The notes beneath the pieces were generated by a model. It was not told where the DNA came from and ran no database searches. It worked only from the letters and a program-made list of their open reading frames with translations. Shown one piece after another: positions 42,075-64,000 of a stretch of 64,000 nucleotides of DNA (positions within the stretch are counted from its first letter, which is position 1; every line of letters begins with the position of its first letter). The position numbers were made by a program, and so were the translations under genes. This DNA is from Bacteroidota bacterium (GTDB taxonomy: Bacteria; Bacteroidota; Bacteroidia; 2-12-FULL-35-15), in contig JBAXQU010000006.1 in the NCBI GenBank assembly GCA_037131555.1, positions 753 through 64,752 of the forward strand, in the 5' to 3' direction.

Positions 42075-43316
42075 ATGCACGTAAAATTTTTTTTAAGAGA
42101 CATCAGCAAAGAAGGAGCTTATTCCAAAAAATCAAAAGAACATTTGGTAAATGCCTACTTCACTTATCATGGGCAACGTATCCGTTTGTCAACTAAGTTA
42201 AGAGTAAATAAAAATGATTGGAATGAAAAGAGAGAGGAGTTTCGAGGCTTCGGGGATGATGTGGCAACAAAGAATGCTACACTAAAAAAAATTCGACAAA
42301 AAGCGGATGGAGTTTATAATACCCTTATGTCTAAAGGAATTCCATTGACAGCTAACATTGTAAAAAAAGAAATTCTAAAAGAAATTTTTCCTGAAAAATA
42401 TGTCAAAACAGAAAAGGTTTACAATTTATTTAATTTTTTAGAATGGTATATTAAAGAAAATCCGAATAACGTAAAGCTTGGGACAATGAAGGCTTATATG
42501 CAGTTAATACCATTGCTTAAAGACATTTCAAAAAAAGAAGGAGACTTGTTTTTAGAATTTGAACAAGTAACTAATCCTTGGGAGTCTGCCTTTAAAACAT
42601 TTCTTATTAATAAAGGTCATGGAAAGAACACAATCGGAAGGCATATAAAAAATATTAAATCTCTAATGACATTGGCGTATAAGAAAAAATTGCACACTAA
42701 TACCGAGTACAGAGAATTTAAAAAGACATCAGAAGAAACCAAAGCAATTTATTTAACTGAAGAAGAAATTCTTTCAATATATAACACTGACTTGCCTTCT
42801 CACTTAGTAGAGGCGAGAGATGTTTTTGTTTTCTCCTGTTTAACTGGGCTCCGATTCAGTGATACCATAGCTTTGAGAAAGTATAATTGGAAAGGAGATT
42901 TTCTTGAAATCACAACAATAAAAACGGAAGACGCACTAAAAATACCACTTCGAAAAACAGCTAAAATTATTTTAGAAAAGTATAAAGGACAAATACCTTA
43001 TTTTTATAATCAAAAATATAATCGTCAGATAAAAGAAATTTGCTCAATGGTTGATTCTCTCAAAGTTGATGAAACATATACTATTACAAAAGGCTCTAAA
43101 CGAAAGGAAATTGTAATAAAGAAATATAAACTGGTACAAAGCCATACAGCCAGAAGAAGCTTTGCAACAAATGAATATAAAAGAGGTACAAAAACTGCAA
43201 TTATAATGGCAGTAACAGGTCACAAATCGGAACGTGACTTTTGGACATACATCCGATTAAAACAAACGGAGAAAGCTGAAGATTTATTTGAAGATTTTCA
43301 AAAAAGAGATTTTTAA
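42075..43316 (+). CDS. Tyrosine-type site-specific integrase
   Basis: C-terminal catalytic residues ...GLRFSD...HTARRSFAT...GHKSERDFWTYIRL (R, H-x-x-R, H, Y). N-terminal SAM-like domain. Confidence 0.9.
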   Translation: MHVKFFLRDISKEGAYSKKSKEHLVNAYFTYHGQRIRLSTKLRVNKNDWNEKREEFRGFGDDVATKNATLKKIRQKADGVYNTLMSKGIPLTANIVKKEILKEIFPEKYVKTEKVYNLFNFLEWYIKENPNNVKLGTMKAYMQLIPLLKDISKKEGDLFLEFEQVTNPWESAFKTFLINKGHGKNTIGRHIKNIKSLMTLAYKKKLHTNTEYREFKKTSEETKAIYLTEEEILSIYNTDLPSHLVEARDVFVFSCLTGLRFSDTIALRKYNWKGDFLEITTIKTEDALKIPLRKTAKIILEKYKGQIPYFYNQKYNRQIKEICSMVDSLKVDETYTITKGSKRKEIVIKKYKLVQSHTARRSFATNEYKRGTKTAIIMAVTGHKSERDFWTYIRLKQTEKAEDLFEDFQKRDF

Positions 43317-43979: not shown

Positions 43980-44741
43980 TTAATTTTTTATTATTGGCAT
44001 TGCTCGATAAATTTTACCATTTAACTCACACCCTCCCTTAGCATAGCTTGGGTTTCCCTTTATCATTGTAGGGTCGTTAGGATTTGGGTTAAATTGCTTT
44101 TTGCCCCATTGTTTAAAGAAGAATTTAACTTTCTGTTTTGCACACTGTCTCTTTATATCGACAACCCATTCCTTCTTTAATGGTCTCGCTCCATGCCCAG
44201 ATTCTCCACCCGTAATTACCCAGTCAATCCCTTTAAGGTTTAAGTTTGAAAGTGGACCTAAAAGAGGTTCAAGCGAAAGGAATTTTATTTTCGCTCCTGA
44301 CTTTTTTAAATACTTCAGACGCTCTACAACCCGCTCATCTTCTATGGACACACCCATCCATATATTGTTTGTCCAGGTTAATTCTGAACTGATTTCAGCC
44401 AACCTCTTTGCCCTTTTGGTCAATATCTGGTAGGTGTGCTGAGGAGTAGCGTTCATAGTTAAAAACACTTGTTTGATAAACTCTAATGGTACATCTTCGT
44501 GAAAAAGGTCGCTCATAGAATTTACAAAAACTACACTTGGCTTTTTCCAAGTAAAAGGTCTTAACAGCTCGTCTTGATGAATAGTAAGTTTAAATCCGTT
44601 TTCATATTTTTTTTGTCCCATATATTGCAGCCTTTTGGACATTACTAAGGCATAACACAGTTTGCAACCAGCTGAGATTTTTGTACAACCTGTTGTTGGA
44701 TTCCAGGTAAAACCTGTCCATTCGATACTTGATTTACTCAT
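43980..44741 (-). CDS. Phage Gp37/Gp68 family protein (DUF5131)
   Basis: N-terminus SSIEWTGFTWNPTTGCTKISAGCKLCYA is the hallmark of this family. Confidence 0.85.
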   Translation of the reverse strand: MSKSSIEWTGFTWNPTTGCTKISAGCKLCYALVMSKRLQYMGQKKYENGFKLTIHQDELLRPFTWKKPSVVFVNSMSDLFHEDVPLEFIKQVFLTMNATPQHTYQILTKRAKRLAEISSELTWTNNIWMGVSIEDERVVERLKYLKKSGAKIKFLSLEPLLGPLSNLNLKGIDWVITGGESGHGARPLKKEWVVDIKRQCAKQKVKFFFKQWGKKQFNPNPNDPTMIKGNPSYAKGGCELNGKIYRAMPIIKN

Positions 44742-46023: not shown

Positions 46024-46827
46024 TTAAAACTTAAAGTGTCGTTTCGCTTCTCTGAAAACATTTTCATATTTTGGCAAGTCGTGAATTTGTGATGCAAGTT
46101 TATTTTCCCAATCACGCTTGAATGCGGCTTCTTTACTTAAAACTTTTTTTGCAAAATCTTTTGGGTTATGTTTTTTTCTTATTGCTTTGTTATGAAAAGG
46201 GATTGTATGGTCCGCAACTTTTATTCTTTCGATTTCTGTTAAATACCAGAAGTCGTATAGGTCTCTTGGTTCTGTTCTGCCCATCAATGCTGCCATTTTC
46301 TCTATTAACACTTCGGATAATGAATAACAGGACAATTCGAAATTTTCTCCAAGGTCAGAATAATTTCTATAAATTGATTTACTCATAACATCTGTTTCTA
46401 AAACCTCCCCTCTGGTAATATCAATCTTTAAATCTCGACTACCCATACCACCTTTTAAGGGTCCAACATAATCAATGTAAAATTGTGGACTTCCTGTTTC
46501 GTGTATCATCCATTTCTTGTCATCTATCTGCATTTCAATATTTGCTTCTTCTTTGATGAAATCAAAAAGATTTTTAAACTCGCCTCGAATTTGTTCATTG
46601 GAAATAGCTTCATCTACAATCGTGAAATCTAAATCTTCAGAGAAACGATAATCCTCAATGTATGCTTTCTTTAATACCGTACCACCTTTAAAAACTAAAC
46701 AGTTGTTTAGAATTTTATTTTTTGAAATCGCATAAAGCACCCAAGACAAAATGTAATCTTTCTCAATCTGTCTATCGCTTACTCTGTTTACAGTAGCTAC
46801 TTTATTTAATTCTTTAGGTTCAATCAT
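46024..46827 (-). CDS. AbiEii/AbiGii nucleotidyltransferase toxin (type IV TA / abortive infection)
   Basis: DYILSWVL...LVFKGGTVLKKAY...RFSEDLDF is the family signature. Confidence 0.85.
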   Translation of the reverse strand: MIEPKELNKVATVNRVSDRQIEKDYILSWVLYAISKNKILNNCLVFKGGTVLKKAYIEDYRFSEDLDFTIVDEAISNEQIRGEFKNLFDFIKEEANIEMQIDDKKWMIHETGSPQFYIDYVGPLKGGMGSRDLKIDITRGEVLETDVMSKSIYRNYSDLGENFELSCYSLSEVLIEKMAALMGRTEPRDLYDFWYLTEIERIKVADHTIPFHNKAIRKKHNPKDFAKKVLSKEAAFKRDWENKLASQIHDLPKYENVFREAKRHFKF

Positions 46828-46828
46828 A

Positions 46829-47656
46829 TCAACTAAAAATGGGTGAAAGGATAGAGTCGCTGTCTATGTTTTGTTGTATAGCCCAACGGAAAATTGTTTT
46901 TCCCTCTTTCGGATAAGTTGGCTCTAATAAAACAAAGGAATTCGTTCTCAACCTTTGTAATTGCTCAATGATGGGATGTTTAATTTCCAAAATTTCTAAA
47001 ATAAATCCTAATCTCTTTATAACTGCCTGTGATTTGAATTGCTCTGCATATTCAAAAAGCTTTCTGTAATCAATTTTATCTTTCGACTTGTAAATTGCTT
47101 TTACAATTTCTGTTATTCCACCAGCATAGCTGGGCTTGAACAAACAATCAATAAGTGTTTTCTCCAAATCAGAACATTGAACTTTGTTGAAACTATCAAT
47201 CCATGTTTTTTTATTTCCAAAAAAATGTTCTTCGTTGTGATAAATAAATTGAAAAGGAATGTTCTTTATTTTAAGTGCTGATGGCTTTATTTGTTTGCTC
47301 ACAACAATTTGTTCTTTCAAGTTTGGTTGTGTTGTTAAACTATGAATTTGAAGAGCGGAAAAATATCCGATGTAATAATTTGCATCACCAACCAAATATT
47401 GCGAAAGCAAATGCCAGTCGGGCATAAATGTTTTTGCATCTTGCTCAAAAGGAATGATGTAATAAACACCATCTTTTATTCGCATAAGCAAACCTCTCTT
47501 GGTCATATCACTTAATAATTTTTTTACTGCATCAGGATTTGAGTTCGGAAGAAGTTTATTTGCCTTGTCAATACCAAAGCAAAGTAACCCTGCTTGATTT
47601 AGTTGGTCAAGTAGTTTATTTGCCTGAAATGAAAGATTTTTATCTTTTATAGCCAT
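46829..47656 (-). CDS. AbiEi family antitoxin / transcriptional regulator
   Basis: Its stop is 1 nt from the AbiEii start. The N-terminal wHTH ...KKLLSDMTKRGLLMRIKDGVYYI is typical. Confidence 0.8.
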   Translation of the reverse strand: MAIKDKNLSFQANKLLDQLNQAGLLCFGIDKANKLLPNSNPDAVKKLLSDMTKRGLLMRIKDGVYYIIPFEQDAKTFMPDWHLLSQYLVGDANYYIGYFSALQIHSLTTQPNLKEQIVVSKQIKPSALKIKNIPFQFIYHNEEHFFGNKKTWIDSFNKVQCSDLEKTLIDCLFKPSYAGGITEIVKAIYKSKDKIDYRKLFEYAEQFKSQAVIKRLGFILEILEIKHPIIEQLQRLRTNSFVLLEPTYPKEGKTIFRWAIQQNIDSDSILSPIFS

Positions 47657-47792: not shown

Positions 47793-49163
47793 TTAAAGTA
47801 AATTAATTTTTTTTGTAATCTTAACCATTCCGAATGTATCTAATTGACAATATTCAAGTAAATGTTTTCGTTGTTCTTTTTGTGTTTCCTCTGACTGATT
47901 CTTCAACTCCGAATAAATTAAACTTGCGCTACCACCATCCTGTATTGTCAAATCACCATAAGTTAATTCTGGAACAAGTACAGGTAATACCTTTTTTATT
48001 GAATACGATTCATTAAAATCTGGATGATAAAATTGCTTCTTTCGGAATGGAACCATAAGGTCAACAACTCGTTCAATCACATGATAAATTTGAGTTTCGT
48101 ATTGTGGGAAATCTCGTCCAAGTTCCTTCAAACGGCTTATCTCAAAGGTTTGATTCCAAACAATAATGCTTCCTTTGTTTCCGAGTGAAGAGAGCAAACC
48201 CTTTATTAACAATTCTCTTGGGTCATTAGTTCCATCTCCGAGAAATTCTTTGTGTTCCAATTCTGAATTTTTATTCCTTTGAATATGTAAAGAATATTGA
48301 AATGGGATTTGCTGATAAGGTCTGCTATTATTGAATTCAGGGACAGCTGGCATTATTGTTTCAAAGTCAAAATAGAATAAAGGGTATTGAAATTCGCTAA
48401 AAAATTCTTTCAAGTACTCTTTATTTATATACTCTTCAAGGTCTGAATTTCTTTCTTCCACTTCAACATTTTTCCAACAATAGTCAGAAAAGTCGCAAGG
48501 ATAAGGTTTGTCGCACTGGTCTCCCACTTCAATGATAGGTTCTATTCTGTCGGAAATCACTTTCTTTAGTTCTACAATTTTTGTTTCAATAAATTCCTGC
48601 TGCGCTTTTACTTGTTCGTGAATTGTTTGCTTTGTAAATAATTCCTGAACATTAATTTCTCCTCTCCGAACATATTGATTATTCAAGTGAACAATAAATA
48701 TATCTTCAAGTTTTATTCCTGATTTTATTATTACAAAGTACTGCAATGCAGCATCAACAATATGTTGCGACTTAACCCCCGTTGTTCCTTTTACTTCAAA
48801 AGCATACCATTTATTATCTTCTTTTACAAGAACATCAATCGCACATAAAACACCATCATAGTTAAAACACGCTTCATATATGATGTTTACGCCTTCTTTA
48901 ATTAATTGCTGAGTTTTCTCAACAGAAAGATGATATGAAAACGCATCAGGTGGTTCAGCATTAATACCTCCTGGAAAAAGTCCTTGAGCCAACAAACCAA
49001 CATTTGTTCCTGAAGAAAAAATTGATTGTTGGGCTTCATCTTCAGGATTTCTCAACTCAGGTTTGAACTTATGTAGATACAGTCGTTTCGGACATTGGCA
49101 GCCGTAAACGAATGTGGATTTTGACAGTATGTGTTTAGTGTAATTCATTAACTTATTTGACAA
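47793..49163 (-). CDS. DUF2779-type protein: Cas4/RecB-like PD-(D/E)xK nuclease with Fe-S cysteines plus a DEDD-like exonuclease domain
   Basis: N-terminus LSKSTFVYGCQCPKRLYL. The Cys cluster is CDKPYPCDFSDYC. The C-terminal half has FYFDFETIMPAVP (a D-x-E exonuclease-like motif). Confidence 0.75.
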   Translation of the reverse strand: MSNKLMNYTKHILSKSTFVYGCQCPKRLYLHKFKPELRNPEDEAQQSIFSSGTNVGLLAQGLFPGGINAEPPDAFSYHLSVEKTQQLIKEGVNIIYEACFNYDGVLCAIDVLVKEDNKWYAFEVKGTTGVKSQHIVDAALQYFVIIKSGIKLEDIFIVHLNNQYVRRGEINVQELFTKQTIHEQVKAQQEFIETKIVELKKVISDRIEPIIEVGDQCDKPYPCDFSDYCWKNVEVEERNSDLEEYINKEYLKEFFSEFQYPLFYFDFETIMPAVPEFNNSRPYQQIPFQYSLHIQRNKNSELEHKEFLGDGTNDPRELLIKGLLSSLGNKGSIIVWNQTFEISRLKELGRDFPQYETQIYHVIERVVDLMVPFRKKQFYHPDFNESYSIKKVLPVLVPELTYGDLTIQDGGSASLIYSELKNQSEETQKEQRKHLLEYCQLDTFGMVKITKKINLL

Positions 49164-49268: not shown

Positions 49269-50021
49269 CTAAATATTGTTTTGAATTATTTCATTTGTTT
49301 GAAGTGCTCTGTTTAATAACATCAGAACGTTGCTTGGTCTAAATTGTTTTCCACGGCTACTCCTGAAACCCTCTGAATTCAACTTGTCTGCAATTTGTTG
49401 AAGAGTACTACCTGAATTGCGAAGAAGTATAATATATCCAGAAGCCTTTCTATTGTTATCGTTTAAGCTTGCCAACTCCTTTCTTCTGTCTTTACCTTTT
49501 TTTATATTCTCTTCTGTTAATCCATGTTTACTTGTATCACGTTTGAATCCTCTGTCTTTAAGGGCTTTTAAGGCTGCCTTGGTTCTTTCAGAAATTCTTA
49601 ATAATTCTTCTTCGGCTAAACTTGTTTTAAGTTTTACAATAAAAGCTGTATCGCTTGGAGCATCAGCAAATTCAAAGGTTATACCACTCTTGAGTAAAAA
49701 TTCCATAAGTAAAGAATACCTCGTTAATCGAGAGCTTTCCTTCGCTACTATTATAGCTCCATTAGTTTCAGCTAATTTTAAAGCACTAAGAAGAAGTGGA
49801 CGTTTTGATAACAAACTTTCAATGCTTACTTGTTTGTCAACCGAGATTTTATCTTTTGAACCAGCGGTTTCAACTTCTGTGAAAGAATCAATAATTTCTC
49901 CACCGACATTCTTGACAAAAAGTTCAACAGATGATTTTTGAGATTCCAAACCGAGGTGTGAAATATTTTGTTTGACGGTTGAGACTCTATAATAAGATAT
50001 GTATTTTTTGATTTTTACCAT
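49269..50021 (-). CDS. Small serine recombinase (resolvase/invertase family)
   Basis: YYRVSTVKQ catalytic Ser motif, with a C-terminal HTH (STLQQIADKLNSEGF). Confidence 0.85.
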   Translation of the reverse strand: MVKIKKYISYYRVSTVKQNISHLGLESQKSSVELFVKNVGGEIIDSFTEVETAGSKDKISVDKQVSIESLLSKRPLLLSALKLAETNGAIIVAKESSRLTRYSLLMEFLLKSGITFEFADAPSDTAFIVKLKTSLAEEELLRISERTKAALKALKDRGFKRDTSKHGLTEENIKKGKDRRKELASLNDNNRKASGYIILLRNSGSTLQQIADKLNSEGFRSSRGKQFRPSNVLMLLNRALQTNEIIQNNI

Positions 50022-54670: not shown

Positions 54671-55540
54671 ATGAAAAAAGAGGACATATATACTATGGTA
54701 ACTGATAGAATCATTAGTAAGCTTAACACTGGCGTTGTGCCTTGGAACTGCGGATACACAAGCATGGCTCCACAAAATTTCCTGACAAAGAAACCTTACC
54801 GTGGAATTAATCATTGGATAACGATAAGTAATAATTTCTCTTCACCTTATTATTTATCATTCAAACAGGTGAAGGATTTAGGAGGTGCAGTGATTGCAGG
54901 TTCAAAGGGAACTCCCGTTGTCTATTGGCAAATACTTGAGAAGAAAGAAAGGAATGCGGATGGAGTTATGGAGAAAAAAACAATTCCGCTTTTGAAATAT
55001 TATACTGTGTTCAATGCTGAACAAACCACAGGAATAGACTTTCCAGTGGTAGAAAATAAGATTTCAAATATAGCTTTGCTTGATGAAGTGCTTGGAAAGA
55101 TGAATCAGAAGCCTGTTATTCGTGAAAGCCAAATCTACTCTCCATGCTACATTCCTGCACTCGATGAAATAAGAATGCCTTTAAAAAACAGCTATGAATC
55201 ATCAGCAAGATATTATAAAACTTTGCTGCATGAGATAGGTCACTGGACAGGAGCTTCAACCAGACTTAAGAGAGAAGGCATTATGAACTTTGATGGATTT
55301 GGTTCTCACAAATATAGTGTGGAGGAATTGGTTGCAGAGCTTACAGCAAGCTATGCAATGACCTTTGCTGGAATGGAGGAGCAGACGATAGACAACTCAG
55401 CTGCTTATATTCAAAGCTGGATTAAGGCTTTGCAAAACGACACCAAGTTTATTTTCAAAGCAGCCAAGCAAGCTGAACTCGCATGGAAATTTATTAATAA
55501 CGATATAGGTTGCAAGGATGAAATAAAAGAAGCGGCATAA
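54671..55540 (+). CDS. ardC: ArdC-like antirestriction protein (N-terminal ssDNA-binding DUF1738 domain + zincin metallopeptidase)
   Basis: VPWN......KKPYRGINHWI is the ArdC-N pattern. The C-terminal LLHEIGHWTG is HExxH. Confidence 0.8.
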   Translation: MKKEDIYTMVTDRIISKLNTGVVPWNCGYTSMAPQNFLTKKPYRGINHWITISNNFSSPYYLSFKQVKDLGGAVIAGSKGTPVVYWQILEKKERNADGVMEKKTIPLLKYYTVFNAEQTTGIDFPVVENKISNIALLDEVLGKMNQKPVIRESQIYSPCYIPALDEIRMPLKNSYESSARYYKTLLHEIGHWTGASTRLKREGIMNFDGFGSHKYSVEELVAELTASYAMTFAGMEEQTIDNSAAYIQSWIKALQNDTKFIFKAAKQAELAWKFINNDIGCKDEIKEAA

Positions 55541-57201: not shown

Positions 57202-57549
57202 CTATTCCCTGTATGTGTAACCAAGTTCTGCGAAATATTTCTCGCACATAAATTCAATGAAACCCTCTGGGGAAAAATGTTCCTCATCTGCAAAATAACG
57301 CAAGTAGAGCAAAATTAAATTCGGGTGCAGGTCTCTGTTCTGCACGTGATGGAATGCTGGGTTCCCATTGTCAAAGAAAAAGAATTCGTCCTCTTGTGTG
57401 CCAGATTTCAACGTTACTTTGGCAATCTTCTTTGCATTGCTTCGGAATACATTATATGTGATTCCATGCTTGATACTGCCCACTTTCGTTGGTCTTCCAC
57501 TTTTATTTAGGAGAATTATTTCTCCGTTTTCGTTTACTAAATTTTTCAT
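57202..57549 (-). CDS. Hypothetical protein, paralog A of the retron-adjacent small protein
   Basis: Shares collinear blocks with the 59492-59857 product: LLN..G.PT.V...K.G.TYN, KKI.KVT.KSG..EDEF.FF..G.PAFH and EGFI.FMC. Confidence 0.55.
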   Translation of the reverse strand: MKNLVNENGEIILLNKSGRPTKVGSIKHGITYNVFRSNAKKIAKVTLKSGTQEDEFFFFDNGNPAFHHVQNRDLHPNLILLYLRYFADEEHFSPEGFIEFMCEKYFAELGYTYRE

Positions 57550-57776
57550 AATTCTTTTTTCTTATAAATAGTTAAGAAAAAGTGAAAAACTACGTTACAA
57601 TACAAAAAGACTCTTGCTTAAAAGCAACAAGATTGGGTTTCCCGAACTACAAATTCCACAATATTGAATCTGATATATTATACATATTCTCAACAATAAA
57701 ATATCTACTTCAGTATTGCATATTAAACCTATTTAATAAGATGTCAGGTCTCCGTTTTTAATTCCAAAAATATAGT

Positions 57777-57784
57777 TACATTTG
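57777..57784 (+). promoter_or_regulatory. Bacteroidota-type -7 box (TACATTTG) upstream of the PD-(D/E)xK operon
   Basis: Matches TAnnTTTG, 17 nt upstream of the ATG at 57801. Confidence 0.4.
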
Positions 57785-57800
57785 ATAAAAATTTAAAACC

Positions 57801-58826
57801 ATGAAGCCAAATATTTTCGAAATTTCAACAAAAGAACTTAGTCAAGACGCCTTTATAACTTGGTTGTTACAATGGGCTGATATATCTAACATTGAATATG
57901 ATGCTAACTTGAGAATTTGTGGTTCTGAATTTATCTCTGAATTAATCAAAAAGGAAATGCCTGAATTTAATGAACCCATAACTACTGTTCGAGCTGGAAG
58001 GCAATGGGAGAATATTGATGTATGGGCAGAAGTAAATGACAAATACTTAATTATTATTGAAGATAAAACTTATACAGGGCAACATTCAGGCCAGTTAGCC
58101 AGATATAGAGCAATTGCAGAAAAATGGTGTAATGAACAGACTCCAAAATATAATTCTCCCATTTGTATTTATTTAAAAACAGGAAATGAATCTCAACAAA
58201 GTCTAAAGATAGTTCAGGAAGATGGTTTTAAAATTTATCAAAGACATGATTTTATTACACTCCTACAAAATCACAACTTAAACAATGATATTATTAATGA
58301 TTTTAAAGCTCGCATTATTAATATTGAAAAAGTAAATAATGAGTGGGAATCTAAACTTATTAAAGAATGGAATGGAAACGACTGGCAGGGATTTTTCCAG
58401 TATTTAGAAAAGGAAATAAATATAGCTGGATGGAACTTTGTAAATAATCCAAATGGCGGATTTTGGAACTCAGTCTTAAATTGGGAGTATTGGAATGATT
58501 ATCCTGTTTATTTGCAAACTGAAGAATTTAAACTTTGTTTTAAAATTTCAACTGACCCAGAAGAAGTTGATATGCCGCAAGATATTACTCGTGGTGAAAT
58601 ACGAGACGAAATTAGTACTTTGATTCTCAAAAACGCAAAGGAAAAAGGTCTTAATTTTATTCGCCGACCTGATAGATTTGGGAATGGAAAATCTATGACT
58701 GTGGCTATTGTGGATGGTATTCATTGGCTTGGAGATAAAGAACAGAAAATAGTTAAAGAAAATGTGGTAGCAATACTTAAATCTTACAAAAACTTTCTAA
58801 TTGAGGTAATTAAAACTGGTAAATAA
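57801..58826 (+). CDS. PD-(D/E)xK nuclease superfamily protein
   Basis: N-terminus ELSQDAFITWLLQW, then IDVWAEV...YLIIIEDKTYT, which fits the D...ExK core. Confidence 0.65.
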   Translation: MKPNIFEISTKELSQDAFITWLLQWADISNIEYDANLRICGSEFISELIKKEMPEFNEPITTVRAGRQWENIDVWAEVNDKYLIIIEDKTYTGQHSGQLARYRAIAEKWCNEQTPKYNSPICIYLKTGNESQQSLKIVQEDGFKIYQRHDFITLLQNHNLNNDIINDFKARIINIEKVNNEWESKLIKEWNGNDWQGFFQYLEKEINIAGWNFVNNPNGGFWNSVLNWEYWNDYPVYLQTEEFKLCFKISTDPEEVDMPQDITRGEIRDEISTLILKNAKEKGLNFIRRPDRFGNGKSMTVAIVDGIHWLGDKEQKIVKENVVAILKSYKNFLIEVIKTGK

Positions 58827-58839
58827 ATTATAATTTAAT

Positions 58840-59409
58840 ATGGAGTTAATAAAATTAGCTGATATAATATACAAGAATACAAATAAACTAAATTTTGGAG
58901 GGAATAAGGATTGGGATGATTCAATTTTTTTGAAGATTTGGTTTGACAATTTAGCTGAATCCATACCTAATAACAAAGGATTGTACTGGTTTATTTCTGA
59001 TTGTAATTTATCGCAATTAAAACTACCTAAAGAATTCCCCAAGAATGGTTGCAATTTTAGTGAAACGAGCTATAATAATGTTAAAACGTTTGGGGACTCA
59101 TTATTGACTTATTTAGATGAAAAGAAACAAAGAGTAGTATATAATGGACATCAACAAAATGTAATGAATAGAGTCCGCCAGCACTTTCATTTGGATAACC
59201 AAACAACAGGTGCTTTAGGAATAAAAAAGTATTCACTCTCATCCTCAACTTGGATTTTAAAATACTTTACATTAAATGACGTTCCAAAAATTATTGATGA
59301 AAAAGAAAAGAGCCAAATAACGAGTTTGCTTAATTCAACCACTGGAAGAATTGCATTGGAAAATGCATGGAGAATAAAATATGGATGGCCACCACTTTGT
59401 AAACTTTAA
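58840..59409 (+). CDS. Hypothetical protein; weak GIY-YIG-like features
   Basis: KGLYWFI ... VVYNGHQQNVMNRVRQH ... LENAW, but the GIY-to-YIG spacing is far longer than canonical. Starts 13 nt after the nuclease gene, suggesting an operon. Confidence 0.35.
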   Translation: MELIKLADIIYKNTNKLNFGGNKDWDDSIFLKIWFDNLAESIPNNKGLYWFISDCNLSQLKLPKEFPKNGCNFSETSYNNVKTFGDSLLTYLDEKKQRVVYNGHQQNVMNRVRQHFHLDNQTTGALGIKKYSLSSSTWILKYFTLNDVPKIIDEKEKSQITSLLNSTTGRIALENAWRIKYGWPPLCKL

Positions 59410-59491
59410 AGATGTCAATTCCTGAATTCAATAATCACAATTGGGAGTTTAATTAAATCACTTAATTTTTCTGCAAAAACAATTCTTATTT

Positions 59492-59857
59492 CTATTCACT
59501 CTCTTCATATTCTTGACATGTGTAGCCCTCAATTGCAAAGTGGCAACCACACATGAAATCTATAAATCCTTCAGCGCTTTTCTGGGTTTCTTTGGTGAAA
59601 TATTTTAAATAGATTCCTTTCAATTGAAAGGAATCGCCTGTATCTTGCTGTATATTATGGAAAGCGGGTGTTCCGCTTTCAAAGAAATAAAATTCATCTT
59701 CAAGTTGACCAGATTTGATTGTTACTTTGGTTATCTTCTTTGGACCGTTCATTGACTCATTATAAGTAACTCCTTGCTTCAAGGTTGCAACCCTTGTGGG
59801 AATTCCATTCGCATTGAGGAGAACGATGTGCCCATATTGGTTAGGTATATATTCCAT
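59492..59857 (-). CDS. Hypothetical protein, paralog B, starting 12 nt downstream of the retron RT
   Basis: See paralog A. Its position makes it a candidate retron partner or effector. Confidence 0.55.
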   Translation of the reverse strand: MEYIPNQYGHIVLLNANGIPTRVATLKQGVTYNESMNGPKKITKVTIKSGQLEDEFYFFESGTPAFHNIQQDTGDSFQLKGIYLKYFTKETQKSAEGFIDFMCGCHFAIEGYTCQEYEESE

Positions 59858-59869
59858 GTTTTTTCTTGT

Positions 59870-60922
59870 TTAAAAAATTGATACGTTAGGATTCCTCTTT
59901 CCAGAACCCATCCTAAACATTCCCACTTCTTTACTTTGCTGCAACAATCCCCTGTAAACCCCATCATCCTTTCCCTTCACTTGTCCGACAAAATTTATTT
60001 TTCCTTCAATCTTTTGTAATAGACTTTGCATTAATTTCTTGTCTACCTCCTTAAGGACATAATGTTTTTGTGTTGCTGCTTCAAGTCCATTTAGTTTTAT
60101 ATCATGTATTGTTGCACGGATATTTCTCACATATTTCCTATCAACATTTGTTTTTGCATTGACTTTTATTCCTGTAACAGTTTGTTGCCGAAACTTGCTT
60201 TGCATTCTGAACTTCTTTTCATTCAATTGGAATCCAAAAGCGGTTATTGATGCTTTTATTTGTGTGATTGCCTCATCACTGATGTTTTCGTTTGATGAAA
60301 AAGTCATGTCATCTGCATATCTTGTGTAGGTCAGTTTGTGCTCTTGTGCAATTGCCATAAGTTGCTTGTCAAGTGGAATGCAAATCAGATTGGAGACTAC
60401 AGGAGATGTCGGAGCACCCATCGGCAATCTTCCTTTGTAACAACAAATGAGGGCGAGGCATGTTGCCAGGTCGTCATTAAAGTTATAGGGGTGTTTCTTG
60501 AAAAACTCTCTTACCTGTATGGCAGAAATACTATGAAAGAAATCTTTGAGGTCAATATTAAGCACATACTTTTTATTCAAGTGATTTTTTGCATTTGAAA
60601 TAATAGTATGAGGTTTTGCATCCTCTTGATAAGATAATACAAAGCCATAGGCAGCCTCTGGTTTAATAATGCAATAGAGAGCCTGAAGAAATGAATTCAG
60701 ACGTTTTTGCAATTCTCTAAGTTGTAGGTTGGGAGACTCTATTGTTCTATACCCTTTTTTTTTCTTTGGAATCTTAAACTCAAAATAGCTTGCGTTTTTT
60801 ATTACCCCAATAAATTCAGGAAAATAACACATCAATAACTTCGACAATTCATTTGCACTTTTAAGTGAAAGGAATTTAACCGAGTTCTCGATAAGCTCTT
60901 TATGTTTAAGTATAGTTTTCAT
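59870..60922 (-). CDS. Retron-type reverse transcriptase
   Basis: RT motifs IPKKKKGYRTI, LNIDLKDFFHSI, LPMGAPTSPVVSN and YTRYADDMTFSS, plus the retron-typical NAKNH (NAxxH) and QTVTGIKVN (VTG) signatures. At 350 aa it has no maturase, endonuclease or other fused domain. Confidence 0.88.
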   Translation of the reverse strand: MKTILKHKELIENSVKFLSLKSANELSKLLMCYFPEFIGVIKNASYFEFKIPKKKKGYRTIESPNLQLRELQKRLNSFLQALYCIIKPEAAYGFVLSYQEDAKPHTIISNAKNHLNKKYVLNIDLKDFFHSISAIQVREFFKKHPYNFNDDLATCLALICCYKGRLPMGAPTSPVVSNLICIPLDKQLMAIAQEHKLTYTRYADDMTFSSNENISDEAITQIKASITAFGFQLNEKKFRMQSKFRQQTVTGIKVNAKTNVDRKYVRNIRATIHDIKLNGLEAATQKHYVLKEVDKKLMQSLLQKIEGKINFVGQVKGKDDGVYRGLLQQSKEVGMFRMGSGKRNPNVSIF

Positions 60923-60925
60923 TTT

Positions 60926-61095
60926 GAAAAAGGAAGAACCGATTGATTTTCTAAAAGAAGTTTGATGCTTTAGAATTTTTTATTTCAAAAAATTCTAAAG
61001 CATCTACTATTTCATCTCATTATGATGACGATTGCAGGTACACAATCAATAGCTTTAGTCCGCTCAAAATCTTCTTCGGTTCTATCCTTTTGTTT
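60926..61095 (-). ncRNA. Candidate retron msr-msd non-coding RNA
   Basis: Lies between the helicase stop and the RT start. The 5' arm (61066-61091) pairs with the 3' arm (60927-60950) as 15 + 6 bp. A perfect 18-bp hairpin at 60964-61004 has a 5-nt loop. Two 5-bp stem-loops lie in the 5' half. The 3' arm ends 4 nt before the RT ATG. Confidence 0.5.
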
Positions 61096-61108
61096 TATAA
61101 ATAAATTT

Positions 61109-62245
61109 TCAGAATGGGTGGTCTTCTTCAATATCATTAGACTTGCTTCCTCTATTCTTCAAATCAGTATTAAATTCATTCTTGCGCATATCCTTGAAGA
61201 ACTCTCCTTCAATTCCTGAAAAGAACGTTTCTTCATAGTCTTTGAATGAAGCAGATTTTGCAGTGAATCTGAGGCGAACAGTATCCAATGGCCCGCTCCT
61301 GTTTTTTGCAATGATTATATCTGCAATTCCCAATGTGCTGTTCCCCTCTCCGTCTTCTGTAATATTATAATATTCTGGGCGATGAAGGAAAAAAACTTTA
61401 TCAGCATCCTGCTCGATTGCTCCAGACTCACGCAGGTCAGAAAGAACAGGTCGCTTGTCTCCACCACGAGTCTCCACAGCCCTGCTAAGTTGGGAACTCA
61501 CAAATACGGCAACATTATATTTCCTTGCCATCCTTTTTAGTTCCCTGCAAATGGTGGCGATTTCCATTTCCCTATTCTCCCTCCTGCTTCTGGTTCTTAT
61601 CAACTGAAGGTAGTCAATGATTATGAGCTGGATTCCTTTCTCTCGCACAAGAAAATCGGTTCTTGAAATAATATCATCCAAAGAAAAAAAAGTGTCTTCA
61701 ATTGTGAGATTTGCAGTCTCCAGAATAGCTGATTTGCGAGAGATTTCCTGCAACTGATACTCTTCAAGTTTTTTCGATACAAGATGATGATAGCTGCAGT
61801 CAGCAATGTTACTAAGCATCCTGAGAAGCATATACTGAGCAGAGTTCTCAAGTGAGAAAAATGCTATTGGAGAATTTTTATTTAATATAGAATTTATCAT
61901 AATTGATACCATGAATGCTGACTTTCCCATTGCAGGACGAGCACCAAGAATTATTAATTCACCAAGAGGAAGGCCTCCTATAATTCTGTCCAAATCAGCA
62001 AACCCAGTTGGTACACAAGAAAACAAATTGCTTGTCTCGTTTGGTGTAACCACCTCCTTAACTGTTTCGCTGAGCAGTTCCTGAAAGTTGGATTCGTTTC
62101 TGTCATCTCTGTATTCATTATTCAGAGATAAGAACCTTGCTGTCCACTTGCTTAGCATCTCCTGCTCGGAAAGATTGTATTTTTTTATATCCAGCTCCAT
62201 TTCTTCAGGAATTCGAGAAAGCATTTCATTTAATTTTTTTGTCAT
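61109..62245 (-). CDS. DnaB-like helicase C-terminal (RecA-fold) protein lacking most of the DnaB N-terminal domain
   Basis: TGFADLDRIIGGLPLGELIILGARPAMGKSAF, IIIDYLQLI, SQLSRAVETRGGDKRPVLSDLRESGAIEQDADKV and IIAKNRSGP. Only about 85 aa precede the ATPase domain. Confidence 0.85.
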   Translation of the reverse strand: MTKKLNEMLSRIPEEMELDIKKYNLSEQEMLSKWTARFLSLNNEYRDDRNESNFQELLSETVKEVVTPNETSNLFSCVPTGFADLDRIIGGLPLGELIILGARPAMGKSAFMVSIMINSILNKNSPIAFFSLENSAQYMLLRMLSNIADCSYHHLVSKKLEEYQLQEISRKSAILETANLTIEDTFFSLDDIISRTDFLVREKGIQLIIIDYLQLIRTRSRRENREMEIATICRELKRMARKYNVAVFVSSQLSRAVETRGGDKRPVLSDLRESGAIEQDADKVFFLHRPEYYNITEDGEGNSTLGIADIIIAKNRSGPLDTVRLRFTAKSASFKDYEETFFSGIEGEFFKDMRKNEFNTDLKNRGSKSNDIEEDHPF

Positions 62246-62393: not shown

Positions 62394-63389
62394 TTAAGCA
62401 ATATCCCTAAGCATTCCACTCTTTTCTTGCCAATAATATTTATGGTCATCCCTACGTGAATTGCGAAAATCAGGGTGGCATACAACCCTCCAGCTTTCTT
62501 TAATGGGCATTTGAATTCCTGGGACTTCAAGAAGCTTATATCCGCTATCTAATGGTTTATCTTTCCTTCTTAAAAGCTTTTCAGCACCTCTTGTCAATAG
62601 AACTTTTGTGTCAGGAATCGCATACAACAACTGATTCAAGTAATTAGATAATTTTATTTGATACCTCATTGGCTTTAATTTACCAATCGGGAAATAACTC
62701 GCATTTACCAATCCAACGCCACTTTCAGTGACAAGGTTCATAAATATATCCTCAGTGTTTTTAATGTTATTGTATTTCTGTGATAAAATATCTGTGCCAA
62801 AACCATTAAGTAGATAGCGACCTGAGCAATTTGGTTTTCTCGATTCCTTTAGGTCATTTTTACAGAAAGGTATTCCCATAGGGTCATTGGGATAAGGGTC
62901 TCGACCAATGAAAAGTATTTTTAATTTACCTCTGTTTGCTAAAAGGGAATCAAAATACTTTGGATAAATTTTTAACTTGTCATTAATAAGTTTGTTGTCC
63001 AATCTGTCATTCAGGTAAAATGCTAGTTCAGAAAATGTGTTTATGTTATCAGTGTCTAAATCATAAATTTGTATATCTAATGCTTGCTCAAGCTCCATAT
63101 AAAAGCCCATACAATCCCAGGAATAGTTGAGAAACTTATTTGAATAATAGTTGTTTAAATTCTCTCCCAGTTTTTTTGCTTCAGCTTTTCTTGCAAGTTG
63201 AAACATATCTTCTTCAGCAATTTCATCAGGTTTAAGCTCCAGATAGTTTTCAAATACTCTTTTTAAAAGAAAAATTAAATTGGTTATGTCAGTCAAATTT
63301 GCTGACTTTTCTTTAGAAAAATTCGCTGGTAGAACTTTACCTTGTACCTCTAGCTCCTTTTGAACTTTAACTTTTTCTCTTGGCTTCAT
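62394..63389 (-). CDS. Divergent UDG-superfamily domain protein with a ~160-aa N-terminal extension of unknown function
   Basis: Four collinear blocks match the window's own ung: FIGRDPYP / IGQDPYH, GVGLVN / GILLLN, KVLLTRG / IVFLLWG, CHPD / AHPS, with similar spacing. I prefer the start at 63389 (1 nt after the WYL stop); the alternative is 63410. Confidence 0.55.
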   Translation of the reverse strand: MKPREKVKVQKELEVQGKVLPANFSKEKSANLTDITNLIFLLKRVFENYLELKPDEIAEEDMFQLARKAEAKKLGENLNNYYSNKFLNYSWDCMGFYMELEQALDIQIYDLDTDNINTFSELAFYLNDRLDNKLINDKLKIYPKYFDSLLANRGKLKILFIGRDPYPNDPMGIPFCKNDLKESRKPNCSGRYLLNGFGTDILSQKYNNIKNTEDIFMNLVTESGVGLVNASYFPIGKLKPMRYQIKLSNYLNQLLYAIPDTKVLLTRGAEKLLRRKDKPLDSGYKLLEVPGIQMPIKESWRVVCHPDFRNSRRDDHKYYWQEKSGMLRDIA

Positions 63390-63390
63390 T

Positions 63391-64000
63391 TTAGTACCGA
63401 TTTGATGCATCTTGATGGGCAGCCTTGATTTTATTCATTAATATTTTTGGTTTGATAACTTTTACATTATCTCCGTGGGAAAGCAGTTCCATTATGAAAT
63501 CATAAGTAATAAAAAGTTTAAGTTTAATTTGTAGTTCTTCTTCTGTATCCTTTATAATCTGCTGTGTTGAATGCAACGGAAGGGTTTTAATAAACTTGCC
63601 TTGCAAAGCAGTAAAACTTAAAATGATTTCGTACGGAGCAGCTTCATTTGGGCTTATAATACCAAAACAATAACGATAATTTTCTTCCACCTGGTTAAGG
63701 TTCTTTTGCTCATACTTTGATATAGTTATTTCCAAATTAGATAATCTGTCCAGAGCAAAACTTTTCAATGTATCATCTTTGAGGTCTTTTGCCATCACAT
63801 ACCACCTGGATTTGAATTCCTTCAAAACATAGGGTTCAACATGGCGAGTGCTTGAATCTTGTTCCCAGAATTTCTTGTAGATAAATTTTATTTTAAGTTT
63901 ATTTTTGATTGCGTGAAGCAATCCGTATAGGTTCTCTGTGCCCTGCGGCTGGCGACTTTCAAGATGTATGAATGGCTTAAGGTCTTGTGCCAGGTTAAGA
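63391..64000 (-). CDS. WYL-domain transcriptional regulator, C-terminal part; the N-terminus is outside the window
   Basis: The frame stays open from 63921 to base 63999, the last complete codon before the window edge. ...IKFIYKKF....STRHVEPYVLKEFKSRWYVMAKD... is the WYL core. Confidence 0.75.
   Translation of the reverse strand, partial: LNLAQDLKPFIHLESRQPQGTENLYGLLHAIKNKLKIKFIYKKFWEQDSSTRHVEPYVLKEFKSRWYVMAKDLKDDTLKSFALDRLSNLEITISKYEQKNLNQVEENYRYCFGIISPNEAAPYEIILSFTALQGKFIKTLPLHSTQQIIKDTEEELQIKLKLFITYDFIMELLSHGDNVKVIKPKILMNKIKAAHQDASNRY

Follow-up and report, generated by a model that had tools for sequence, protein, structure and literature searches.

Which of its neighbors is the partner of a retron reverse transcriptase that carries no effector domain of its own, and what could that partner do? 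The question is raised by a locus near the end of a 64,000-nucleotide (nt) stretch of DNA from a Bacteroidota bacterium (GenBank assembly GCA_037131555.1, contig JBAXQU010000006.1, positions 753 to 64,752 of the forward strand). The whole 64-kb stretch is referred to below as the window, and all coordinates are given on it. At this locus, the reverse transcriptase (RT) gene belongs to a series of minus-strand features in the order DnaB-like ATPase, structured RNA, RT, and an open reading frame (ORF) of 121 amino acids (aa). Our analysis gives good support to the view that the locus is a three-part retron operon consisting of a DnaB-derived ATPase, an msr/msd RNA, and the RT. This three-part module is compact (about 2.7 kb), and its features and those that adjoin it are as follows.

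61109..62245, minus strand: DnaB-derived ATPase, 378 aa, the conserved third component and putative effector
Between the DnaB-like stop and the RT start, minus strand: intergenic spacer of 186 nt, which houses the structured RNA
60927..61091, minus strand: retron noncoding RNA (msr/msd-like), 165 nt, recognized by fold, covariation, and a covariance model
59870..60922, minus strand: retron RT, 350 aa, unfused, recognized by RVT_1, PADLOC, and the NAxxH, YADD, and VTG motifs
59492..59857, minus strand: 121-aa ORF, a lineage-specific passenger or accessory gene, outside the conserved retron by gene distribution

Conserved Linkage of the DnaB-Like Gene and the RT

A preliminary description of this DNA, made from the sequence alone, had offered either the small protein or the DnaB-like ATPase as the effector and had proposed a check for co-occurrence with the RT in other genomes. 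We ran this check on 80 loci around RT relatives from species-representative genomes, plus metagenomic loci. A DnaB_C-like gene was found directly upstream of the RT, on the same strand, in 26/26 loci with an unfused RT ~36-92% identical to that of the window; these genes were 269-446 aa long as called, the shorter ones being start-codon or contig-end truncations. When the neighboring ORFs of the 26 loci were clustered all-against-all, the DnaB-like protein and the RT were the sole shared clusters and the flanks were unrelated; no third conserved gene emerged from this clustering, a WYL gene being present in 6/26. The pairwise distances of the two proteins were strongly correlated (Mantel r = 0.83, with 0/5000 permutations as high), and reverse look-ups from the truncated DnaB-like proteins P0168 and P0172 led to RT neighbors. 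In at least 15 cases, an RT match and a DnaB-like match also agreed in the length of their longest contig. Of 80 RT relatives on viral contigs (IMG/VR), a separate set, only one was found with the module (L098, RT 37% identical). Gene order and RNA recur in the 26 independent loci, and the DnaB-like gene is well supported as the conserved partner of the RT. It provides the specifically associated, co-evolving accessory protein expected of a retron; RT-partner co-evolution, which has been reported for other retron types (PMC7736814), was found here too.

The 121-aa ORF (59857..59492) does start 12 nt past the RT stop, as first described, and it has no recognizable domain, no match being obtained in Pfam, PADLOC, NCBIfam, or PHROGs. 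A role of its product as the effector, with the DnaB-like gene as a mere neighbor, would agree with this position on the same strand, with the conservation of the position in six near-identical metagenomic loci, and with a confident AlphaFold2 (AF2) model of five strands and two helices (predicted local distance difference test, pLDDT, 86.5), whose fold is apparently novel, with no match in PDB or BFVD. The gene was, however, seen only in L001-L006, whose RTs share 87% or more of their residues with that of the window. It is missing beside the 81%-identical RT P0002, in a locus that keeps WYL-DnaB_C-RT, and from all of the 20-plus loci at 36-63% RT identity. A paralog (57549..57202, 50% identical) is a stand-alone gene 2 kb away, the family counts no more than 25 representatives in 1.8 billion proteins, and the distant homologs P0124 and P0125 do not adjoin any RT. 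From this distribution, the gene is a recent passenger of one lineage, placed in a slot behind the RT whose content varies, and we rejected its product as the effector, a role that we regard as very improbable. Of the two candidates first offered, it is thus the DnaB-like ATPase that stands.

Reverse Transcriptase

The RT (60922..59870) was found as first described, with 350 residues, the NAKNH and VTG motifs, and no fused effector. NAKNH occupies residues 110-114, YADD residues 202-205, and the VTG of QTVTGIKVN residues 249-251; NAxxH, YADD, and VTG are invariant in 40 homologs. RVT_1 is its sole Pfam domain (E = 1e-23), and the protein ends after the thumb region. Homologs number in the thousands, and the closest 120 are nearly all 330-380 aa long and from Bacteroidota where the organism is named. 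The assignment to the retron type was borne out, with retron hidden Markov models reaching ~1e-100 versus 1.8e-16 for the group II intron RT model, and with the RT nested among defense retron types.

The best PADLOC models were RT-Protease_XI (3e-100), RT-TIR_XII (1e-96), and RT-Toprim_I-C (1e-96), each matched in its RT part alone (positions 4-321 of 510 for RT-Protease_XI). The NCBIfam models retron_Ec67_fus (274.7 bits, cut-off 450) and Retron_TIR_antiphage (275 bits, cut-off 600) were both matched at 1e-81. Types XI (RT-trypsin protease), XII (RT-TIR), and I-C (RT-TOPRIM, Retron-Eco2/Ec67) therefore have the closest RT sequences, but these are single-gene fusions, whereas the RT of the window is unfused and its effector candidate is the separate upstream ATPase. 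The PADLOC scores (334, 323, and 322 bits) are too close to choose among the three types, and each was rejected on domain content: the protein has RVT_1 only, without the C-terminal trypsin-like protease of type XI, without the TIR domain of type XII, and without the C-terminal TOPRIM extension of the Eco2-like type I-C, the two NCBIfam models for the last two staying below their cut-offs.

RTs linked to DnaB_C formed a single clade in a neighbor-joining (NJ) tree, a distance tree built from the homologs with no reference retron sequences included. It is well supported that the RT belongs to a monophyletic, unfused “clade 8” retron lineage, kin of types XI, XII, and I-C, and that in this lineage a separate upstream gene stands in for the usual fused C-terminal effector. 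RTs at 33-39% identity either have C-terminal trypsin, TIR, or other extensions or form a cyanobacterial group without DnaB.

Other fusions were met within clade 8. The RT of L038 is fused to Schlafen/AlbA_2 and that of L087 to a “HisKin-conflict” histidine-kinase-like domain, and a 12-member cluster of RT extensions (L048 and others), which has no Pfam match, is probably the TOPRIM of type I-C.

Structured RNA

The structured noncoding region of ~170 nt noted ahead of the RT proved to be an RNA of 165 nt that recurs in the 26 loci. The 186-nt spacer folds at -56.1 kcal/mol versus -30.5 kcal/mol for shuffled sequences (z = -6.5, 0/200 shuffles as good), and it has 16-nt inverted repeats at its flanks and a perfect 18-bp hairpin. 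In all loci, the RNA starts 0-15 nt past the DnaB-like stop and ends a few nt ahead of the RT start. The parts of the RNA in the window are listed here from the outside inward.

61076..61091, minus strand: a1 arm, outer inverted repeat (AAAAGGAUAGAACCGA); helix 1, with 10/10 pairs compensatory across loci
60927..60942, minus strand: a2 arm (UCGGUUCUUCCUUUUU), which stops about 4 nt short of the RT start codon
61071..61066 with 60950..60945, minus strand: inner a1/a2 stem, GAUUUU/AAAAUC in the window
61065, minus strand: unpaired G of the U(A/U)UG-AG motif, directly 3' of the inner stem; an invariant alignment column, with the position taken from the inner-stem counts
61030..61047, minus strand: most conserved hairpin (GAUUGUGUACCUGCAAUC); loop U-GUG..C.GCA invariant, stem covarying, helix 3 100% paired
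60964..61004, minus strand: perfect 18-19-bp hairpin, in the same place as the variable long hairpin of every homologous locus

The inner stem is AUUAU/AUAAU in the element generally. A small hairpin follows the G motif, one or two variable hairpins (one of them long) are present, and a conserved AGAUAA box lies ahead of a2. By analogy with canonical retron geometry, the G at 61065 is a candidate branching (priming) G. The hairpin at 61030..61047, which is nearly invariant across loci (GGUUGUGUUCCUGCAACC), is probably the RT-recognition stem-loop in msr, and the hairpin at 60964..61004 is probably the msd stem to be copied into multicopy single-stranded DNA (msDNA).

Covariation supports this structure. 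Over the 22 pairs of three helices in the 26-locus alignment, 93% of the cells are paired, versus at most 57% when the pairing is slid; 17/22 pairs show changes on both sides, a value that 0/500 shuffles reach, and RNAalifold agrees. A covariance model (R1), built from 21 loci with the window's clade left out, gave a single match in the 64-kb window, at 61090..60928 on the minus strand (E = 0.004). R1 also matched L007, L093, L094, L096, L001, L058, L033, and L098, of which L093, L094, and L096 had been retrieved through the DnaB-like protein and L098 is a predicted viral contig. No match to R1 was obtained in loci with fused, WYL-type, or cyanobacterial RTs, and no Rfam family was found in the whole window at gathering thresholds.

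The 18-bp hairpin is picked up by a terminator scan, and one could take it for the transcription terminator of the DnaB-like gene, with the RT as an orphan. The T-run is weak, however, the a1/a2 arms and two further helices covary across the 26 loci, and the whole 160-nt architecture is found by the covariance model only beside RTs of this clade. We rejected the hairpin as a mere terminator, an explanation with hardly any probability left to it. Judged by its covariation, the RNA has the canonical retron layout and is a genuine msr/msd-like RNA.

The msd region differs among loci. A conserved stretch of ~28 nt (GCGAUGCUCACUGCGUUCCGCUUCUCAU) is present there in many distant loci, among them L010, L013, L016, L019, L023, L025, and L059 (columns ~118-150 of alignment A6). 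This stretch is the apical loop of the long msd hairpin, and the msDNA would therefore show a conserved single-stranded loop. The window's clade is without it and has the perfect hairpin with a 3-5-nt loop in its place.

DnaB-Derived Partner Protein

As had been noted, an N-terminally truncated DnaB-like ATPase of RecA fold (62245..61109) precedes the RNA, its stop lying 13-17 nt ahead of it in the window. Its regions, by residue, are these.

2-43: three N-terminal helices
54-66: linker helix
78-336: RecA core
337-364: variable spacer
365-378: disordered acidic tail (...RGSKSNDIEEDHPF)

Pfam gave DnaB_C (E = 2e-80; also KaiC/AAA_25) and no match to the DnaB N-terminal domain PF00772. TIGR00665 was matched at model positions 104-434 with 302.9 bits, under its cut-off of 385.25, and NCBIfam dnaB_SPI-7_type was matched at 1e-65. 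Residues 52-341 align with chain residues 160-445 of Geobacillus DnaB (2vye, E = 2e-56) and residues 7-338 with residues 134-464 of E. coli DnaB. Of the marks of a replicative DnaB, the protein has the RecA-type C-terminal domain, Walker A/B, and the arginine finger; the PF00772 collar domain is absent and the TIGR00665 score falls short. The AF2 model (pLDDT 80.5) has a disordered C-terminus of ~35 residues, and Foldseek matched it to DnaB chains at template modeling (TM) scores of 0.71-0.75, some of them from complexes of DnaB with DnaC, lambda P, and DciA. In the retron-linked family, Walker A (GKS/T), Walker B (D), SQLSR, and SDLRESGxIEQDAD are conserved, and from these motifs the RecA core is apparently ATPase-competent.

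After its own ~380-aa clade, the best matches of the protein are full-length chromosomal DnaBs of Bacteroidota (512-513 aa, 42-46% identity). BLASTP against one of 513 aa (P0211) gave 43% identity, with residues 49-378 aligned to DnaB 179-513 and collinear to the last residue. In common with bacterial DnaB it has the fold, Walker A/B, the arginine-finger region, the tail, and a sequence identity of 43-46% over everything from the linker helix to the C-terminus; it differs in having no PF00772 region, a conserved 48-residue N-terminus of its own, and a place that is always beside a retron RT. The DnaB-like proteins are without the first ~130-180 residues of DnaB, that is, the primase-binding N-terminal collar. 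It is well supported that the partner is a true DnaB homolog, collar-less, that keeps the linker helix and the RecA core. By the titles of PDB entries 6kza, 9oa1, and 8a3v, the retained C-terminal part of DnaB is the part to which the loaders DnaC, lambda P, and DciA bind.

Two other possibilities were considered and rejected. The gene upstream of the DnaB-like gene is not a split-off N-terminal domain, as it has no PF00772 and varies between loci. As for a phage origin, the DnaBs of phages reach no more than 43% identity and are no closer than those of the host; none of their alignments extends beyond residue 342, and they are without the tail.

Host-Type C-Terminal Tail

The tail RGSK(S/M)NDIEEDHPF is identical at 13/14 positions between the window protein and the full-length DnaB P0211. 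Among the full-length DnaB matches, 75/77 end in PF and 45 exactly in NDIEEDHPF. In the truncated clade, whose bodies have diverged to 50% identity, 37/40 proteins end in PF and 30/40 in ND-x-acidic-PF. Conservation within this clade is 0.75 for the tail and 0.74 for the RecA core, compared with 0.44 for the spacer and 0.67 for the new 48-residue N-terminus. The tail is predicted to be disordered (AF2), and E. coli and Geobacillus DnaB stop 7-9 residues past the aligned core, with no such extension.

The chromosomal DnaB of many Bacteroidota (P0187-P0266) has a C-terminal extension of ~40 residues with the near-invariant end ...SKMNDIEEDHPF; the corresponding stretch of the window is 61109-61150. 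Acidic, Phe-ended tips are also present on other replication proteins, namely E. coli SSB (...DDDIPF) and T7 gp4 and gp2.5. The likeness to the window tail consists of a disordered acidic tail ending in PF and a variable spacer, and we use it as a lead only.

Proposed Mechanism

The best explanation overall, to which we would give a probability of roughly 0.55, is a three-part retron in which a DnaB-derived effector poisons replication and is checked by RT-msDNA. The DnaB-like gene, the RNA, and the RT would be co-transcribed; the RT would bind the conserved msr hairpin, prime from the invariant G at 61065, and copy the msd, including the 18-bp hairpin, into msDNA. By analogy with the effectors of studied retrons, the RT-msDNA complex would keep the DnaB-like ring inactive until phage infection upset the msDNA or the complex. 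The freed collar-less helicase, which has the loader-binding body and the partner-binding tail of the host helicase, would then compete with the real DnaB or poison it, by forming mixed rings or by titrating a loader or replisome partner. It could occupy the partners of the DnaB body and tail and could not build the primase-binding collar; replication would stall and the infection abort. For the narrower proposal that the effector is a mimic of the host replicative helicase, which would either poison the replisome in a dominant-negative manner or act as bait for DnaB-hijacking phage proteins, the sequence likeness makes a case that we hold as tentative, with odds clearly below even.

Several points weigh against this explanation. 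The poisoning or mimicry step is inferred from the logic of the sequences. In most family members, Asp takes the place of the catalytic Glu of DnaB (SLE). The RNA is enclosed by two ORFs, and we identified no promoter of its own; a sigma-70 promoter scan, of a kind unsuited to Bacteroidota, stayed at chance level. The distant retron-linked proteins keep no more than an acidic end that closes with PF or an aromatic residue (11/22 end in PF), and in the rumen locus L068 the DnaB_C-like gene and the genomic DnaB have unrelated tails, the rumen Bacteroidales DnaB (L068 12762-14297) ending in ...DLFEDE; strict mimicry is therefore limited to the window's clade. Finally, an NJ tree puts the DnaB-like clade of the window with the full-length Bacteroidota DnaBs and not with the other retron-linked proteins, which leaves a single origin unproven. 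This grouping may come from rate heterogeneity, or the host dnaB may at a later time have replaced the partner gene or converted it. The RT tree, unlike the DnaB-like tree, keeps all the DnaB_C-linked RTs together.

The same likeness to host DnaB applies equally to a decoy or guard, in which the DnaB-like protein would bait phage loaders or inhibitors and their binding would be the trigger. The toxicity would then come from the activated complex, for example from uncontrolled ATPase or translocase activity on DNA or on released msDNA, and not from competition with DnaB. In solved structures, lambda P, DnaC, and DciA contact the region that the protein retains, and phage replication proteins are documented as retron triggers, for example helicases for Retron-Eco11 (PMC12746101) and SSB for Eco8 (PMC13402713). 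The conserved genes, however, show no obvious killing activity, with no nuclease, TIR, protease, or membrane domain, and we consider a decoy unlikely, if worth keeping in mind.

Genomic Setting

The surroundings of the module raise another question, namely whether it serves defense at all. Positions 1-41.7 kb of the window hold housekeeping genes, and an island begins at a tyrosine integrase and extends to the window end. Calling it a defense-rich mobile island was fair, as the integrase, AbiEi/AbiEii, a PDC-S26-like PD-(D/E)XK protein, and ArdC surround the retron. No tRNA attachment site was found for the island, there being no tRNA near the integrase. The genes of the island recognized outside the module are the following.

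42075-43316: tyrosine integrase, the island boundary
43980-44741: DUF5131
46024-46827: AbiEii
46829-47656: AbiEi
47793-49163: DUF2779
49269-50021: serine resolvase
54671-55540: ArdC
57801-58826: PD-(D/E)XK protein, PDC-S26-like, 341 aa (PD-(D/E)XK_4)
63391..64000, minus strand: WYL-WCX regulator gene, frame open to the window end (Pfam WYL 2e-13, WCX 2e-6)

In such an integrated element, with its integrase, resolvase, and ArdC, the DnaB-like protein and the RT could together be a module by which the mobile element replicates or is maintained, with, for example, an RT-made DNA primer and a helicase plugged into the host replisome. Mobile elements often carry DnaB-family helicases, as the dnaB_SPI-7_type match recalls, and the host-type tail would fit a coupling to the host replisome. 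On the other hand, the N-terminal collar needed for primase coupling is missing, the flanks differ in 26/26 loci with no initiator or other mobile-element gene conserved, and some loci lie among chromosomal or defense genes (GmrSD, caspase, AhpC). The a1/a2 layout of the RNA is also the canonical one, and the RT nests among retron types that serve defense. A role in mobile-element replication is less likely than one in defense, and we find it distinctly doubtful.

The WYL gene lies within 5 kb of the module in the 6/26 loci that have it and likewise in L093 and L098. The WYL-WCX product may regulate the module but is not obligate for it. A 338-aa ORF (62394-63410) with a GRDPYPN...GIPF motif, which separates the WYL gene from the DnaB-like gene, gave a sub-threshold UDG match (E = 0.14) and is kept solely in the nearest relative, L001.

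Downstream of the RT, the 121-aa gene and its paralog bracket a block of 2.3 kb (region 57202-59857) that contains a 189-aa ORF with a weak GIY-YIG hint (E = 0.085) and the 341-aa PD-(D/E)XK_4 protein resembling PDC-S26. The whole block is missing from the locus with the 81%-identical RT, where the RT is followed by a homolog of the 196-aa gene; L001/L002 have the 121-aa gene alone of the block, plus a different 184-aa gene. In the L094-L096 sublineage, the slot gene is again lineage-specific, a 1172-aa DUF559-DEAD/Helicase_C protein 8 nt past the RT stop. This region looks like a hotspot of nested insertions.

Relation to Known Retrons

Mestre et al. 2020 (PMC7736814) recognized 13 retron types and mention neither a helicase nor DnaB. 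A computational preprint of May 2026, Toro 2026 (bioRxiv 10.64898/2026.05.14.725207), reports two protease-less type XI-like lineages and describes DnaB_C next to type XI-like retron RTs. A computational link between DnaB_C and retrons had thus been published before; the preprint calls the role of DnaB_C unclear and does not note the host-DnaB tail. Within the searchable library, a search for work on the DnaB tail of Bacteroidota, or on a part of DnaB_C in defense, yielded nothing beyond Toro 2026.

The window resembles the TXI_noncan_h lineage of Toro 2026 in its unfused clade-8 RT with NAxxH and VTG, its adjacent stand-alone DnaB_C protein, and its a1/a2-flanked RNA upstream of the RT, predicted in that lineage; among the marks of the lineage are a type XI-like RT that lacks the protease and a DnaB_C protein no more than 2 genes away on either side, and the window has both. 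In TXI_noncan_h, however, DnaB_C is mostly at offset +1 (downstream), whereas it is always directly upstream in the window lineage. The hosts are gut Bacillota and Bacteroidota in the former and mostly environmental or aquatic Bacteroidota in the latter. The TXI_noncan_h RNA folds as a compact double stem-loop and lies 22-104 bp away from the RT, while the RNA of the window lineage has 3-4 internal hairpins and abuts both genes. TXI_noncan_h has no WYL gene, compared with a WYL gene nearby in about a quarter of the loci here.

A locus of a rumen Bacteroidetes (L068 5693-8797) has a 475-aa RT, a 248-aa gene of unknown function with an overlapping start, and a 308-aa DnaB_C-like gene downstream. 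The R1 RNA model gave no match on L068, and the arrangement is probably of the TXI_noncan_h type of Toro 2026.

In Table S2 of Toro 2026, the five lowest-scoring “type1-C3, low” rows all list a DnaB_C neighbor. They come from aquatic or anthropogenic Bacteroidota, including a Crocinitomicaceae; the group is scored without novelty and its layout is not discussed. One row, “WCX;UDG,DnaB_C,” is the window's own layout. The lineage had thus been seen earlier, as the low-confidence “I-C3,” but was not recognized. The statement that the neighbors are unlike known retron partners holds for the 13 types of Mestre et al. and gives way before the DnaB_C-RT link of Toro 2026, and a new retron architecture was an overstatement, given that both this link and the layout are already listed. 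What is new here, as far as the searchable literature and the sequence comparisons go, is the derivation of the partner from the host replicative helicase and the identity of its tail with that of the host protein.

The three-part logic is shared with Sen2/Eco1, Eco8, Eco11, and Ec48, retrons in which RT-msDNA holds back a separate toxic effector and which react to replication or recombination proteins of phages; this is a comparison of mechanism and not evidence of membership. The known retron effectors are nucleases, nucleoside deoxyribosyltransferases, phosphoribosyltransferases, two-transmembrane proteins, and similar, none of them derived from an essential host replication protein.

Implications

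The lineage filed as low-confidence “I-C3” can now be seen as a coherent family of DnaB_C-linked retrons, in which the DnaB-like gene takes over from the 121-aa gene as candidate effector and the RNA, with its candidate priming G, is defined. Retron effectors so far destroy or deplete DNA, nucleotides, NAD, membranes, or proteins; a trimmed helicase suggests instead that the stop point could be the replication fork or the loading of the helicase, a step that many phages must take over. If the effector is indeed a mimic of the host helicase, no earlier retron, and hardly any other defense system, would have as its effector or sensor a copy that derives recently from an essential protein of replication. 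The analysis also flags the conserved C-terminal peptide NDIEEDHPF on Bacteroidota DnaB and, if the reading is true, would point to an SSB-like tail interaction in Bacteroidota replisomes.

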